DNA of 33,358 nucleotides, from IMG/VR virus record IMGVR_UViG_2740892218_000011; one strand, written 5' to 3'. Source of the DNA: a virus. Its lineage: Duplodnaviria > Heunggongvirae > Uroviricota > Caudoviricetes. Of the stretch, positions 1,385 to 7,924 are shown piece after piece (the stretch's first letter is position 1; each line of letters begins with the position of its first letter). The position numbers and the translations under genes were made by a program. The notes under the pieces were generated by a model. The model saw only the letters and a program-made list of their open reading frames with translations. It made no database searches and was not told where the DNA came from.

Positions 1385-2035
1385 TTACAAATTAAAAAAC
1401 ATCCTAGAAATGGCACCACCTACCACCCCCCCTACGCAGATAAAGAATATTATTTCTTTTGGATAAAGTCGGATTAATTCTGAAGCACGAAGTCGGACTT
1501 CTGGTAAGGTCGAATTCTCTGTGTTGCTTGATACCGATTGTTGCTCTAACCACGACAATGCAGACTGCAACTGAGAACGAGTAAGATCGTTTAAACGTCC
1601 TGTACCGAAATTGATATGGCAATACCGCAGAAGTTTTTGTCGAAGTCCACAGTCTTCACTGTTACGTAGTAATAAACTTACAAGAGCCTTACAGGCATCA
1701 TGATCTTTACATCGCTCAAGCATTGCATGCAGAAAACTCTCCGCTGTTTTATATTGATTTACTGTCATATCATCAATACCAGCTACACCAATCTCCGCAT
1801 GTACTTTTTGCCAAATAATAAACGCTTCAGTATTGCTAGCTTCTGCAATAGCAGCAACCAAGCTATTTAGCTCCTTACGCTGAGCCTTAAGCAAAGGGCG
1901 ATCGTCATCATCATTATTCGAAGGGATTGCGATATTGACGGTATGAGAACCATCATATCGCCCTATCTGAATATTCTTTTCGTGAAAATCACGCCCAGCA
2001 ACGCGATTGTTTGAACCGTTTGAGTTGACGGCCAT
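1385..2035 (-). CDS. Tail-anchored membrane protein of unknown function (immunity-operon cargo)
   Basis: 216 aa; strong SD (AGGGAGGTG) 12 nt after the repressor stop; single C-terminal TM helix (IIFFICVGGVVGGAISRMFF); N-terminus shares the motif NNR[VI]AGRD[FY] with the repressor C-terminus. Confidence 0.6.
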   Translation of the reverse strand: MAVNSNGSNNRVAGRDFHEKNIQIGRYDGSHTVNIAIPSNNDDDDRPLLKAQRKELNSLVAAIAEASNTEAFIIWQKVHAEIGVAGIDDMTVNQYKTAESFLHAMLERCKDHDACKALVSLLLRNSEDCGLRQKLLRYCHINFGTGRLNDLTRSQLQSALSWLEQQSVSSNTENSTLPEVRLRASELIRLYPKEIIFFICVGGVVGGAISRMFFNL

Positions 2036-2050
2036 GTCACCTCCCTACTA

Positions 2051-2455
2051 TCACCTACCCTTAGTTTCGTTATAGTCACGCCCAGCGATACGGTTATTAC
2101 CGCCAGAAATATTTAACTCACGTCCTGATGGCTGAGTTTCCTTTTCACTGGCCGCACCTTTTAAAGCCCCGATCACCGCGTTTTTCACATCTAACGAAGC
2201 TGCTCGAAAGCGAGTAATCAACTCCTGCTCATCATCGTTATAAGTTTCAGGTGAGTGAATTCCCAACACAACATACTGAACATCAAGACCAAAACGAGAC
2301 AGCGCTGCCAAATACGCAGCATCAGGAAAGCTATCTCCTTTCTCATATCTAAGCTGAGTTAGCTTTTTGACTCCACCAATGTCGCTCATAGCAACTTGAC
2401 TAAGTCCCAATCTTTCCCTTTCCTCACGCAACCTCTGACCAATATCATTTTTCAT
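2051..2455 (-). CDS. Immunity repressor, HTH_XRE family (C/CI-like)
   Basis: N-terminal HTH (IGQRLREERERLGLSQVAMSDIGGVKKLTQLRYEKG); divergent from the early operon; start placed at the internal Met (MKNDIGQ...) because the longer ORF would overlap the divergent gene start. Confidence 0.75.
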   Translation of the reverse strand: MKNDIGQRLREERERLGLSQVAMSDIGGVKKLTQLRYEKGDSFPDAAYLAALSRFGLDVQYVVLGIHSPETYNDDEQELITRFRAASLDVKNAVIGALKGAASEKETQPSGRELNISGGNNRIAGRDYNETKGR

Positions 2456-2531
2456 ACAAAAAACCTTGACAGGTATCTTTTTTGATACCAAAATGATTTC
2501 ACGAGCTATTAGATGATCACAATATATCACT
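2456..2531. promoter_or_regulatory. Divergent lysogenic/early promoter-operator region
   Basis: 76-bp gap between divergent repressor and early genes; TTGACA hexamer at 2466-2471 immediately followed by perfect palindrome GGTATC-TTTTTT-GATACC (2472-2489). Confidence 0.45.
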
Positions 2532-2738
2532 ATGAAACAAGTTCTTCACGATACCAGATCACGCATTCCGCGTAACACCGCCACAGGTCCAAGACTGGCA
2601 CTTCGGCTGTCCCTCGAGGAGCGAGCCGTCATTGATGAAATGGCAGCTAAAGAACAACGCTCATCCTCTAACATGGCGCGCATGATCTTCCTTCGCGGCC
2701 TAGAGCTAACCCAGAAAGAACAAAACAAATCTTCCTGA
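2532..2738 (+). CDS. Small ribbon-helix-helix-like DNA-binding protein (Cro/Apl-position early regulator)
   Basis: 68 aa; predicted beta-strand then two helices (LALRLSLEERAVIDEMAAKEQ...NMARMIFLRGLE) consistent with a CopG/Arc-type fold; first gene of the rightward early operon. Confidence 0.45.
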   Translation: MKQVLHDTRSRIPRNTATGPRLALRLSLEERAVIDEMAAKEQRSSSNMARMIFLRGLELTQKEQNKSS

Positions 2739-2754
2739 TCAGGAGGCTAATGGG

Positions 2755-2958
2755 ATGTCAGGTATAACCATCAATATCAATGTGAATGCCCCCTATGTAT
2801 CCCTGCAGAAATATGCAGAGATAACAGGTATCCCTCTTAATACATGCAAAAAGATGTTGGCTGACGGTCGAATTATTATCCGACCCAAACGCGCCAAAAT
2901 GGAAAAGCCTGAAGTAAACCTTGTGGCGATGTTAAAAGACGCTTTGGCTAACAGCTAA
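2755..2958 (+). CDS. Cox-like small HTH protein (putative excisionase / Pc repressor)
   Basis: 67 aa; pattern PYVSLQKYAEITGIPLNTCKKMLADGRI resembles the P2 Cox DNA-binding region (recalled from memory); SD GGAGG upstream. Confidence 0.5.
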   Translation: MSGITININVNAPYVSLQKYAEITGIPLNTCKKMLADGRIIIRPKRAKMEKPEVNLVAMLKDALANS

Positions 2959-2979
2959 AACAATGAACAGAGCATCATC

Positions 2980-3330
2980 ATGAAAAAAAACACTAATATT
3001 CCATACTCCAAATTTCGTAATGGCGTAGAACGCCACGCTAACCGTTTCGCTATCAGTACATCACGTAGCAACACTCGCTACAGCCTGAGCGAAACACACG
3101 CTACACCTGATGGCCATCCCGTAAAACAAATTGGTGAACACACCTGGCTGATTGAGAAAGCTGGAATCGTGGTTCACAGATGCCAACGCAACCCATTTAC
3201 CGGAAACCGCATTTTTGCTCTGAGCAACGGCGACAATCAGTTTGGACAGGATTTCACGTTGTACGAAGCTCTGCGCACGGTTGATCGTCTGCTGCGTGGA
3301 CAGAATTTCATTAAACAGGCTGATTTATAA
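2980..3330 (+). CDS. Early-operon hypothetical protein
   Basis: 116 aa ORF, same strand and tight spacing with neighbouring early genes; no recognisable domain. Confidence 0.5.
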   Translation: MKKNTNIPYSKFRNGVERHANRFAISTSRSNTRYSLSETHATPDGHPVKQIGEHTWLIEKAGIVVHRCQRNPFTGNRIFALSNGDNQFGQDFTLYEALRTVDRLLRGQNFIKQADL

Positions 3331-5027: not shown

Positions 5028-7823
5028 GTGGCAACGGAGTACATCAGAGACTGGCAACAACCACGCCATGCAGTCGGTCGCGAGGGGACGGGGGAGCCTG
5101 TCCGTCCCTCCCTTCTTTCTTCCTGGCTGGATGCCTACCGGGCAGAGAACGAGCGCCGCCAGGAAATGGCTGATGCGGCGTTCTCTGCCGCACCGCTGGG
5201 CAATCTGATTAATAAAAGCCTGGACGCACAGGAAAAACAGGACAAAGCCATCACACTGGCAAGAGAAGCCAGAAAACAGGCACGCGGCGCGGTGGATGAA
5301 GCAATTGCCGCACTACGTCTGCTGCCGTCCTATCTGCGTGATCCGCTTATCCGCCATCTCTCTTTCCTGCGCAAAAAACAGGAATCCGATCGTCAGAAAG
5401 GCAAAAAGAGCTGGCAGGCTGAACGCTACGCGCGCGGAACCCTGCGCAAAATATTCGAACGTCTGGAGCGCACCGACAGACGCTGGCTGACACCGGGTTA
5501 TCGCTCCCTTGCCGGGCGTGAACGCCTGGATGATTTACTTTACCTGCCGCAGCTCAACAAACACCAGATACAGACACTGGCCGTCATGACAGCGGCGATG
5601 TTCAGCAGCACCTTCGAAAAACTCTGCGATGACTTTGGCGCGACCGATGGCGAGCTGACCATGGATATAACGCTGAAGGCATATCAGATGCTGGCCCGCA
5701 TGGCGTTACATCTGCACACAGTGCCGCCGCATTATGACGCACTGACAACAGACAAAGACCGGAGGAACGAACCGGACACGGAGCTGCTGCCGGGCGCAAT
5801 CCTTCGCCTGACCTGTGCGGACTGGTGGAAACGCAAATTGTGGCTTTTACGTTGCGAATGGAGAGAGGAACAACTCCGCGCTGCCTGTCTGGTTTCCAGA
5901 AAAACATCACCCTATCTGAGTCAGGACGCATTAAGTGAATTTCGCGCACAGCGCGAGAAAACACGCGATTTCCTGAAAAGTTTCATGCTGGAAAATGAAG
6001 ACGGGTTCACGATTGATCTCGAGACAGTGTATTACGCGGGAGTAAGTAACCCGGTCCACCGTAAGGCAGAAATGATGGCCACCATGAAGGGACTGGAACT
6101 TCTGGCCGAAGCCCGTGGCGACAGAGTGGTGTTTCTGACTGTCACCTGCCCGTCAAAATACCACGCTACAACAGAGAATGGTCATCCGAATCCCAAATGG
6201 AACGGCGCCACCATGCGCGATTCCAGTGATTACCTGGTTAACACTTTTTTTAAGGCGGTCCGCAAAAAACTGAATCGCGACGGCCTGCGCTGGTATGGCA
6301 TCCGCACGGTGGAGCCACACCATGACGGCACCGTGCACTGGCACATGATGGTCTTTGCACATCCTGAAGAAATCGACAGCATCGTGGACATCACCCGTGA
6401 TATTGCCATTCGCGAAGACCGCCACGAGCTGGGCAATGACATAACTCCGCGCTTTAAGGCAGAGTACGTCGACGGTTCGAAAGGTACGCCGACCAGCTAC
6501 ATCGCCACCTACATCGGAAAGAACCTGGACAGCCGCGCCGTGGATGGCATTGACCCGAAAACAGGCAAGCCACGCGTTGATCACGAAACCGGAAAATCAA
6601 TGGCCGAGAGCGTGGAACGCGCCATCGGCTGGGCGCGCCTTCACCGCGTCCGCCAGTTCCAGTTCTTTGGTATCCCCTCCCGTCAGGTATGGCGTGAACT
6701 CCGCCGCCTTGCCAGTCAGATGGCCCGCAACCCGGAAGGTCCACAACGTCTGGAAAATGACGCAATGGATGCGGTACTCGCTGCCGCTGATGCCGGGTGT
6801 TTTGCCACCTACATTGAGAAACAGGGTGGCGTACTTGTTCCACGCAAGGATTACCTGATTCGCACCGCCTACGACCTCGCAGAAGAGCTGAACGATTACG
6901 GCGAGCAAAGCGTACAGATTTACGGGATCTGGTCGCCACAAATCGGGGAATCTTCCCGCGTGTGCACGCACCCGGATAACTGGAAGCTGGTAAGACGTAA
7001 ACCGGAAGCGGAAGACAGCGCCCGCGAAAATGGTTTTGACCTTCAGGGCGGCCCTGCCGCCCCTTGGACTCGTGGCAATAACTGTCCCCGTGTACAGGAA
7101 ACGGACAACAACGGGACAGAACAGCCGGAAGAACGGCCAGCACCGTGGCCGCAGCTTCCTGACGGCGTTGATGTGGATGAATGGATGCGCTCACTGAAAC
7201 GGCACGAAAGCCGGGCGCTGATGCGTTCGCTGCGTGACAAACAGGCAAAAAACAACAGTGATGAAATGCAGAACTGGACACAGAGCCGCAAACAGCCGCG
7301 GCCTTTGCCTGATAACCACGAGTTACTCGCTAAAGAATGGCGGGAGTCTGCCGAATCTCTCGGCCTGCATATCGGTGAACAACAGATGCAGCACCTGTTA
7401 CGGGGCGGCAGTCTGTACGTTGACGGCAGCATCATTGCACCGCAGGGATTTGAAATTGTACGTAAACCGGATACCCGACCGGACAGCCGAATCACACAAC
7501 TCTGGCAGCGCCTGAGCCGTAATCACGGCGTAAACAGCACGGAAATCCGCCATAACCCGGTTTCCAGCTATCAGAAACAGCTCGGGGCATCAGACCCAGA
7601 AGCCGCCGCACGCCTGGCATCCACAATTCAGCAGGACCAGAACACCATGAAAACACCCGTTACCGTGCTTTCTGACATGCTGCGCACCATCCGTGACGCA
7701 GAGCACGCACAGAGAATCAGTGAAACCACTGAACGCGCCCGCCGCAAAGCAGACCTGCTGCGGTGGCCTGACCAGCGAAAACAAAAAACAGACAGAAACG
7801 GGATTCACAAATCCCGTAAATGA
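5028..7823 (+). CDS. A: Replication initiation protein A (P2 gpA family rolling-circle endonuclease)
   Basis: 931 aa; gpA-family position and conserved central region (HWHMMVF..., YIATYIGKN); GTG start; long C-terminal extension relative to P2 A. Confidence 0.85.
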   Translation: MATEYIRDWQQPRHAVGREGTGEPVRPSLLSSWLDAYRAENERRQEMADAAFSAAPLGNLINKSLDAQEKQDKAITLAREARKQARGAVDEAIAALRLLPSYLRDPLIRHLSFLRKKQESDRQKGKKSWQAERYARGTLRKIFERLERTDRRWLTPGYRSLAGRERLDDLLYLPQLNKHQIQTLAVMTAAMFSSTFEKLCDDFGATDGELTMDITLKAYQMLARMALHLHTVPPHYDALTTDKDRRNEPDTELLPGAILRLTCADWWKRKLWLLRCEWREEQLRAACLVSRKTSPYLSQDALSEFRAQREKTRDFLKSFMLENEDGFTIDLETVYYAGVSNPVHRKAEMMATMKGLELLAEARGDRVVFLTVTCPSKYHATTENGHPNPKWNGATMRDSSDYLVNTFFKAVRKKLNRDGLRWYGIRTVEPHHDGTVHWHMMVFAHPEEIDSIVDITRDIAIREDRHELGNDITPRFKAEYVDGSKGTPTSYIATYIGKNLDSRAVDGIDPKTGKPRVDHETGKSMAESVERAIGWARLHRVRQFQFFGIPSRQVWRELRRLASQMARNPEGPQRLENDAMDAVLAAADAGCFATYIEKQGGVLVPRKDYLIRTAYDLAEELNDYGEQSVQIYGIWSPQIGESSRVCTHPDNWKLVRRKPEAEDSARENGFDLQGGPAAPWTRGNNCPRVQETDNNGTEQPEERPAPWPQLPDGVDVDEWMRSLKRHESRALMRSLRDKQAKNNSDEMQNWTQSRKQPRPLPDNHELLAKEWRESAESLGLHIGEQQMQHLLRGGSLYVDGSIIAPQGFEIVRKPDTRPDSRITQLWQRLSRNHGVNSTEIRHNPVSSYQKQLGASDPEAAARLASTIQQDQNTMKTPVTVLSDMLRTIRDAEHAQRISETTERARRKADLLRWPDQRKQKTDRNGIHKSRK

Positions 7824-7896
7824 GCGAAAAACACGCCGCGATATATGAAACGCGCACAAAACAGGCAAAAGCGGGATTTCAGAATCCCGTAAACGA
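7799..7896. promoter_or_regulatory. Two palindromic repeats (CGGGATT-N5-AATCCCG-TAAA) upstream of parM; candidate operator/centromere
   Basis: Copy 1 at 7799-7823 (overlaps the A stop codon), copy 2 at 7872-7896, about 73 bp apart, just upstream of the parM RBS. Confidence 0.45.
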
Positions 7897-7924
7897 TTAA
7901 TTAATCAACATAAGGAAAATCGAC

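Follow-up and report, generated by a model that had tools for sequence, protein, structure and literature searches.

Organisation of the parMR locus and its upstream dyads

This work deals with two short dyads upstream of the partition genes parM and parR in the viral DNA IMGVR_UViG_2740892218_000011 (33,358 bp; the whole of this stretch is referred to as the window). Identity of the region to Escherichia phage P88 and further Xuanwuvirus (P2-family) phages was 92-94%, and the window is a P88-like prophage of the P2 family; the P2 cos sequence gave no match within the window. The genes followed each other on the plus strand in the order A, parM and parR, then portal and terminase genes were found on the opposite strand. 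Gene A (5028-7823), which serves replication, matched Phage_GPA with E=1.3e-128. The parM gene (7925-8884) encodes an actin-like segregation ATPase of 319 amino acids, in which Pfam StbA_N (E=6.7e-82) and the ParM C-terminal domain (E=4.1e-65) were identified, and parR (8891-9202) encodes an adaptor of the ribbon-helix-helix family with 103 amino acids (Pfam PF10784 Plasmid_stab_B, E=3.6e-24). The match of ParM to the R1 ParM structure 1mwk had E=1.6e-91, and 4a62 and 5aey were likewise matched at about 1e-91 (residues 2-316). Judged by these matches, ParM and ParR are bona fide members of their families.

Dyad 1, CGGGATT-CACA-AATCCCG, was located at 7799-7816 and dyad 2, CGGGATT-TCAG-AATCCCG, at 7872-7889 by exact pattern match, with the core GGG-N10-CCC at 7800-7815 and 7873-7888 respectively. 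When the whole window was scanned with CGGGATTNNNNAATCCCG allowing at most 2 mismatches, these two sites were the only ones and both were exact, while 0.08 matches were expected by chance and two matches occurred in 0 of 100 shuffles. Each dyad is part of a 42-bp direct repeat (family D1), composed of a 17-nt A-rich 5' flank, the dyad and a 3' flank TAAA(T/C)GA. Repeat unit 1 (7782-7823, 3' flank TAAATGA) lies within the 3' end of gene A and repeat unit 2 (7855-7896, 3' flank TAAACGA) lies 73 bp further on, start to start; the two units were 79% identical. The dyads are separated by a spacer of 55 bp (7817-7871), A-rich on the plus strand, variable in sequence and conserved in length. The repeat scan in and around parMR found no other repeat family able to serve as an alternative parC.

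An earlier sequence-only reading of this DNA had described two phased palindromes in near-identical 25-bp elements upstream of parM. Both elements were recovered, CGGGATTCACAAATCCCGTAAATGA at 7799-7823 and CGGGATTTCAGAATCCCGTAAACGA at 7872-7896, with 20 of 25 positions identical, each being the 3' part of the longer 42-bp repeat. The term "phased" was justified, as 73 bp corresponds to about 7.0 helical turns. The spacer of five nucleotides assigned to the palindromes was in error, the 7-bp arms being 4 nt apart, and the extended form ACGGGAT...ATCCCGT given for both applies to dyad 1, which pairs over 8 bp to A...T (7798-7817), and not to dyad 2. The overlap of the first element with the stop codon of gene A (TGA 7821-7823) is real in the window, at a stop position that is peculiar to it. 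Relative to 116 of 117 distinct relatives, 2 bp are missing from gene A of the window near 7762 (CTGCTGC--GGTGG versus CTGCTGCGGGGTGG). This deletion shifts the frame of the last ~20 codons, and the gene ends at 7821-7823 instead of the usual 7846-7848. In most relatives the stop of the upstream open reading frame (TGA 7846-7848) is held by the spacer, and in P88 gene A stops at the equivalent TGA, i.e. between the two elements.

The dyads travel with parMR as one cassette

For comparison, 155 loci were collected, which reduced to 117 distinct upstream sequences. In L075, L112 and L168 a different open reading frame of 155 amino acids is placed between A and parM, and the homology to the window starts abruptly at ~7783, the first base of repeat unit 1. 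This open reading frame reads into repeat 1 and ends with the ...TGFTNPVNEQKTRSDI tail, which is the terminus of gene A in most relatives. On the other hand, the locus L251 (E. coli SA31-1) has the same gene A followed by other cargo; here the homology ends at ~7761 and no dyads are present. On the 3' side, loci that carry different cargo cease to be similar 0-16 nt past the parR stop. The recombining unit defined by these boundaries therefore consists of the repeats, parM and parR, so that the whole mobile cassette, with its parC-like repeats, spans 7782-9218 on the plus strand as delimited by homology among relatives. ParR is the only DNA-binding protein encoded in it. The last ~20 codons of gene A tolerate a frameshift and are shared by unrelated open reading frames, which indicates that repeat 1 is conserved at the DNA level. 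Both repeat copies were kept in 154 of the 155 loci.

Because L251 holds different genes in the slot after gene A, this slot is a cargo hotspot. In L251 it is filled by an AAA-family ATPase and an S8 peptidase (1775-3062), which replace parMR and possibly form a defence system. The inserted 155-amino-acid protein (L075 957-1424; also in L112 and L168) is Cys-rich, with MIKYCRQCGRELHY...CCRCRG.

Conservation of the dyads within and beyond the P88-like family

Nucleotide diversity was calculated from the 117 distinct P88-like sequences. The 28 arm positions of the dyads had a diversity of 0.041 and the GGGA/TCCC cores 0.032, compared with 0.171 for the loops, so that the arms were about 4 times less diverse than the loops; the central spacer (7824-7854) and the adjacent coding sequence of A both gave 0.080.

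Two more distant loci, L174 from Hafnia and L175 from Plesiomonas, are P2-like prophages that carry parMR at the same place. The ParM of L174 was 62% identical to that of the window, and the ParM of L175 was about 60% identical to that of L174. Their non-coding DNA could not be aligned with the window: with the sequences anchored on the elements, the ungapped identity was 11-12/40 upstream and 23-25/57 in the spacer, in a region that is 37-49% A. The elements were nevertheless found at corresponding positions. Counted from the parM ATG, they lie at -125 and -52 in the window (spacing 73 bp), at -124 and -51 in L097, a divergent P88-like locus of Hafnia (73 bp), at -128 (GGGATTGAGGAAACCC) and -55 (GGGTTCATTAAATCCC) in L174 (73 bp), and at -131 (GGGACAACAAAAACCC) and -59 (GGGACAACACTAACCC) in L175 (72 bp). 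In dinucleotide shuffles of the 400-nt upstream region of each locus, a pair of GGG-N10-CCC motifs 70-76 bp apart appeared 0 to 3 times per 20,000. The eight elements of the four lineages gave the consensus (C)GGGAYW-N4-(A/G)A(A/T)CCC-R-N-A-A-A-Y-G-A, to which the 25-bp footprint of the sequence-only reading comes close. The conserved GGG/CCC ends, the 16-bp span, the 72-73-bp phasing and the distance to parM thus indicated a DNA site that is read by a symmetric protein assembly.

The GGG-N10-CCC motif was absent from six parC regions of plasmids and phage-plasmids, which contain A- or T-rich iteron arrays instead. No further members of the L174 lineage were found in IMG/VR, and the L175 query retrieved L249 only, which belongs to another clade. 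A-tract phasing as a sign of intrinsic curvature was also considered and dropped, as the 10.4-10.5-bp peak was modest in the window and L097 and none was seen in L174 and L175.

Properties of ParR and its sister clade

The profile of the ParR family matched the pB171 ParR structure 2JD3 with E=3.1e-15 over ~106 N-terminal profile positions, and pB171 ParR is thereby the closest solved structure; a search of PDB with the single ParR sequence gave no match, 2JD3 being reached by the profile only. pB171 ParR is reportedly a ribbon-helix-helix dimer that forms a helical scaffold on parC (Moller-Jensen, 2007). Differently from it, the phage ParR is without most of the helical region after residue ~62. 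An AlphaFold2 monomer model of ParR, built from a 14-sequence alignment, had a mean predicted local distance difference test score of 55, and the N-terminus and the beta-strand were left without a resolved structure. Because of the low confidence of this model, the ribbon-helix-helix fold is assigned to ParR through homology only.

In the 14-sequence sample, in which both allelic types of ParR (see below) were represented, residues 6-14 (RRISFYLKP) were invariant down to 50% identity with the ParR of the window, and this segment is predicted to be the DNA-reading beta-strand of the ribbon-helix-helix. In the C-terminal tail, N96, I97, F101 and P102 were invariant as well, and the linker varied freely. 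The tail NIRALFPE was conserved across the phage ParR alleles. As SQIAGNIRALFPE, the tail of ParR can be aligned with the C-terminal ends of ParR from R1 and further plasmids, including an invariant Asn; the C-terminus of R1 ParR is reported to be the ParM-binding peptide (Salje and Lowe in 2008, Gayathri in 2012).

Two allelic types of ParR could be distinguished by a helix reading TPEARKSGQRV or PASERSRAQRA, with about 52% identity overall (the window; L011-L013, L100). Both types have the same beta-strand and C-terminal tail with a hypervariable linker. No association was found between the allelic type (TPEARKSGQR vs PASERSRAQR) and the dyad haplotypes. Both types stood beside the same haplotypes, which suggests recombination within parR and would be expected if the DNA is read by the invariant strand.

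Among P2-like prophages, a sister clade was represented by L176 of Serratia, L252 of Enterobacter and the viral contig L249. Like the window, these loci have a parM-parR pair after gene A, and their ParR is about 133 amino acids long. The strand reads NRKISFYLKP as against TRR(I/V)SFYL(K/N)P, and the two short dyads are replaced by one long dyad, GGGAAC..AGAAAAAT-N27-ATTTTTCT..GTTCCC, with 19-bp arms 27 bp apart; in full, the inverted repeat is (C/T)GGGAAC(G/A)ATATAGAAAAAT-N27-ATTTTTCTGTTTCGTTCCC. The A-rich flanks and the GGGA/TCCC edges are kept (CAAAAA-(C/T)GGGAAC ... GTTCCC-AAAA(A/G)CGA). Since the clade with NRKISFYLKP has a different cis arrangement, the architecture of the site tracks the ParR clade. 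The neighbouring genes of this clade were also recorded: a HicA/HicB toxin-antitoxin pair adjoins parMR in L176 (3950-4584), and in L252 (3911-5257) it is adjoined by a KAP nucleoside triphosphatase; both are further cargo of the same region.

Transcription signals upstream of parM

A candidate weak sigma-70 promoter of parM was placed at 7878-7905 on the plus strand, with the -35 box TTCAGA (7878-7883), a spacer of 16 nt and the -10 box ATTAAT (7900-7905). Its -35 box lies in the centre of dyad 2, and its score in a home-made position-weight scan was low, 3.2 bits. The equivalent position was the top match in L097 and L174, not in L175, and this was the only promoter-like signal that recurred by position. 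TTAATCAA was common to the window, L174 and L175 and altered in L097. These features make autoregulation of parM by ParR plausible, with weak support. No plus-strand terminator was found between A and parM, so that parMR could just as well be transcribed by read-through from the early replication operon.

The dyads as a probable ParR-bound centromere

Type II partition is a textbook plasmid system, whose centromeres are described as long iteron arrays. Of the features of a type II ParMRC system, an actin-like ParM, a small ParR adaptor encoded directly downstream of parM and a repeated site that lies upstream and forms part of the locus were found here. An R1-type parC architecture was not found, its place being taken by two inverted repeats 73 bp apart instead of iteron arrays. 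We propose that the dyads probably constitute a bipartite, dyad-based parC that is bound by ParR and acts as centromere, and probably also as operator. Candidate ParR sites had been suggested at this place by the sequence-only reading, and the comparison of relatives spoke for it through the membership of the dyads in the cassette, the conservation of core, spacing and position, the lack of other copies and the invariant strand of ParR. Its caveat that the site is not of the R1 type was also correct. The two-dyad site would accordingly be classed as an architectural variant of the known type II ParMRC system.

The proposed mechanism is drawn by analogy with R1, in which about one ParR dimer is bound per 11-bp iteron and two loaded blocks form a U-shaped complex (PMC2241845). 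Binding by ParR, its stoichiometry, the folding of the complex, repression and an activity in segregation are all inferred. ParR dimers would recognise the half-sites GGGAYW and WRTCCC; as the half-sites of one dyad are about one helical turn apart, probably two ParR dimers would be accommodated per dyad, with possible extra contacts on the conserved 3' flank (R-N-AAA-Y-G-A). The loaded dyads, 7 helical turns apart and on the same face of the DNA, could then be brought together across the A-rich spacer of fixed length into a small folded nucleoprotein complex, from which the C-terminal tails of ParR (NIRALFPE) would capture or cap the ends of ParM filaments. Dyad 2 probably doubles as an operator over the weak parM promoter.

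Several observations weigh against this proposal. With regard to the operator part, the strict sigma-70 scan of 7400-9800 gave no promoter, the matches of the position-weight scan were all weak (3-9 bits), and simple read-through from gene A may account for the expression of parMR, so that this part is weakened. With regard to the centromere, at most about 4 half-sites are available here versus 10 iterons in R1, and single-base variants that break one half-site occur frequently: CGGGACT (dyad 1) and AATCCTG (dyad 2) were each present in ~1/5 of the distinct sequences. In the metagenome contig ERZ894188 NODE-8 (L137), the sole exception to the two repeat copies, an exact 73-bp deletion (window 7788-7860) has left one unit, repeat unit 2. 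Since the prophage is integrated in essentially all genomes, a centromere would also be without an obvious substrate. Furthermore, shared ancestry confounds the correspondence of ParR clades and site architectures. The idea that Arg7 of the ParR strand reads GGG, based on covariation, found no support, since the NRK clade also keeps the GGGA/TCCC edges.

The strongest competing explanation is that the dyads bind another protein, a host factor or a phage regulator that controls parMR, and that the ParR centromere is elsewhere or does not exist. A dyad of 16-18 bp whose half-sites are one turn apart would likewise be suited to a helix-turn-helix dimer, and the centromeres of the ParR family studied so far are iteron arrays (PMC2241845). 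We nevertheless consider this explanation unlikely, because the dyads accompany parMR and are not tied to gene A or to other parts of the phage, and their architecture changes along with the ParR clade. A regulator of the whole phage should have more sites, while none was detected elsewhere in the window, and no alternative parC emerged from the repeat scan.

Two explanations at the RNA level were given an equally low, and clearly smaller, probability. In the first, the dyads are two tandem Rho-independent terminators of minus-strand transcripts, by which gene A is shielded from leftward transcription out of the cargo region. The minus-strand hairpins are stable (-9.1 and -10.2 kcal/mol), both have T-rich tails and were called terminator-like, and several natural variants still pair on this strand as G-U wobbles. 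These properties were not shared by L174 and L175, whose elements have only outer stems of 3-4 bp with long loops or interrupted pairing; the fold energies of their element 1 could not be told apart from those of shuffles, and a T-run was absent on either side, while position and spacing were kept. In addition, it is on the plus strand that the AATCCTG variant forms a wobble, and double changes that would compensate each other were not observed. To the right of the dyads, the cassette has neither a gene nor a promoter on the minus strand, and a conserved spacing of 73 bp between two terminators has no rationale. Such a function is therefore very unlikely.

In the second, plus-strand hairpins in an A-parM transcript act as processing or stability elements or in translational control of parM. 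Hairpins of -11 kcal/mol (z = -4.0 and -2.6) can indeed form on this strand, and A and parM would be co-transcribed, with no plus-strand terminator between them. The potential for hairpins was gone in L174 and L175, whereas the GGG..CCC ends and the spacing persisted, and in the frequent CGGGACT variant the stem of the plus strand contains a C-A mismatch. The end of dyad 2 is 35 nt away from the ATG, the Shine-Dalgarno sequence being left free, and Rfam 15 gave no match at E<=1 on both strands of 7500-8100. An RNA element is thus as improbable as a terminator pair. Finally, a functionless duplication or recombination scar at the cargo-insertion hotspot, to which the coincidence of the cassette boundary with repeat 1 and the recombination of the repeats (cf. 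the 73-bp deletion in L137) could be ascribed, is scarcely credible in view of the core, spacing and position kept across unalignable flanks (at most 3/20,000 shuffles per locus), the lower diversity of the arms compared with loops and spacer, and the retention of both copies in 154/155 loci.

Comparison with known partition systems

The ParR-bound, dyad-based parC proposed here was compared with known cis sites. R1 parC spans 159 bp and consists of two blocks of five direct 11-bp iterons each, which flank a 39-bp promoter core; about one ParR dimer is bound per iteron, and the blocks around the promoter are assembled into a U-shaped complex (PMC2241845). The phage locus shares with R1 ParMRC (StbA/StbB) the order cis site, parM, parR, a homologous ParM, and a ParR of the same Pfam family whose tail can be aligned. 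Both sites are bipartite, lie directly 5' of parM and are A-rich on the coding strand, and the right half-site AA(A/T)CCC of the phage resembles the ...AAAACCC ends of the R1 iterons (read in L005). In contrast to R1, each phage block is a single inverted repeat of 16-18 bp per 42-bp unit, the blocks are separated by 55 bp in which no clear promoter lies, and the first of them falls within the coding sequence of the preceding gene. The phage ParR is shorter (103 amino acids), the segment that follows the N-terminal part in plasmid ParR proteins being largely missing or a variable linker, and the replicon that carries the cassette is an integrating phage.

In architecture, the site comes closest to srpC of the SXT/R391 integrative conjugative elements, which has four direct and inverted repeats in two pairs; SrpR binds each pair, single half-sites being insufficient (PMC4489591). 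The function of srpMRC was shown by plasmid stabilisation and electrophoretic mobility shift assay, and SrpR has no detectable homology to ParR (PMC4489591). As with the phage cassette, the element that carries srpMRC, a type II-like partition system, is normally integrated in the chromosome. The sequence and spacing of its repeats are different.

A precedent for the use of ParMRC by an integrating phage is given by AlpACS of the Corynebacterium prophage CGP3, in which the adaptor AlpA of the actin-like AlpC binds the alpS repeats in its own promoter region (PMC5539076). After induction, the phage requires AlpACS for the efficient replication and transport of its DNA (PMC5539076). Both systems are prophage-encoded; the actin-like family and the adaptor of AlpACS are unrelated to those of the window, and alpS consists of repeats of a short TTAAnnG motif in place of two phased dyads. 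In the papers found in the library searched, the parMR genes of P88-like phages were listed only as "partitioning" cargo (PMC6456863), and none of these papers described a cis site or parC of these phages.

Distribution and possible roles of the cassette

Of 5,426 complete E. coli genomes, 1,349 contained the A-parM junction, UTI89 and O157:H7 strains among them, with 1,501 places on chromosomes and 2 on plasmids. Outside the P88-like prophages, the nearest ParM proteins were 46-53% identical and were encoded on the phage-plasmid D6 and on IncI, IncL/M and IncF plasmids. A search of the plasmid database for ParR with the same beta-strand gave 8 matches, six of this ParR type and two weak ones; the six lay on a 34.5-kb record confirmed as a P88-like genome or on very large records. 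One complete P88-like genome with integrase, cox, A, parMR and structural genes (L250; NZ_CP148288.1, 1-34461) was deposited as a circular, non-mobilizable "plasmid" of 34,461 bp of E. coli Z1323PEC0009. This single record could reflect an episomal state, or only excised or replicating phage DNA; as a circular 34.5-kb molecule it is compatible with the former.

The proposal places a centromere that would be reduced to two phased dyads, about 90 bp, beside members of the same ParM and ParR families. If ParR binds as proposed, the locus would provide a compact natural minimal segrosome and a model for the capping of ParM by few dimers. It also draws attention to a neglected question, the role of an actin-like segregation machine in an integrating phage, for which the positioning of genomes in the lytic cycle, an episomal carrier state and effects on the host chromosome are candidates. 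It is conceivable, and we suggest it with considerable doubt, that the cassette is a working phage device rather than a remnant of plasmid genes, possibly expressed by read-through from the early replication operon, which positions or separates replicating phage genomes upon induction or infection (cf. AlpACS) or sustains an unintegrated carrier state. In a stronger version, the chromosomal parC of lysogens together with ParMR could act on the host chromosome in about 1/4 of E. coli strains.

Two minor observations were made among the loci. A P88-like parM locus, with a ParM of 93% identity to that of the window, was found on a 226-kb contig (L010, NZ_JBQPOM010000071.1) of an assembly labelled "Vagococcus sp. 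WN89Y", a Gram-positive bacterium, which is probably a case of contamination or mislabelling. In the window, GTGCACAAATTTGCAC followed by a T-run and, in addition, a bidirectional terminator-like palindrome (TGCGTGCACAAAAAA/TTTTTTCTGCGCGCA) were observed 3' of parR (9292-9320 and 9373-9407), and the GTGCACAAATTTGCAC element after parR was also conserved in the divergent Hafnia locus L097.

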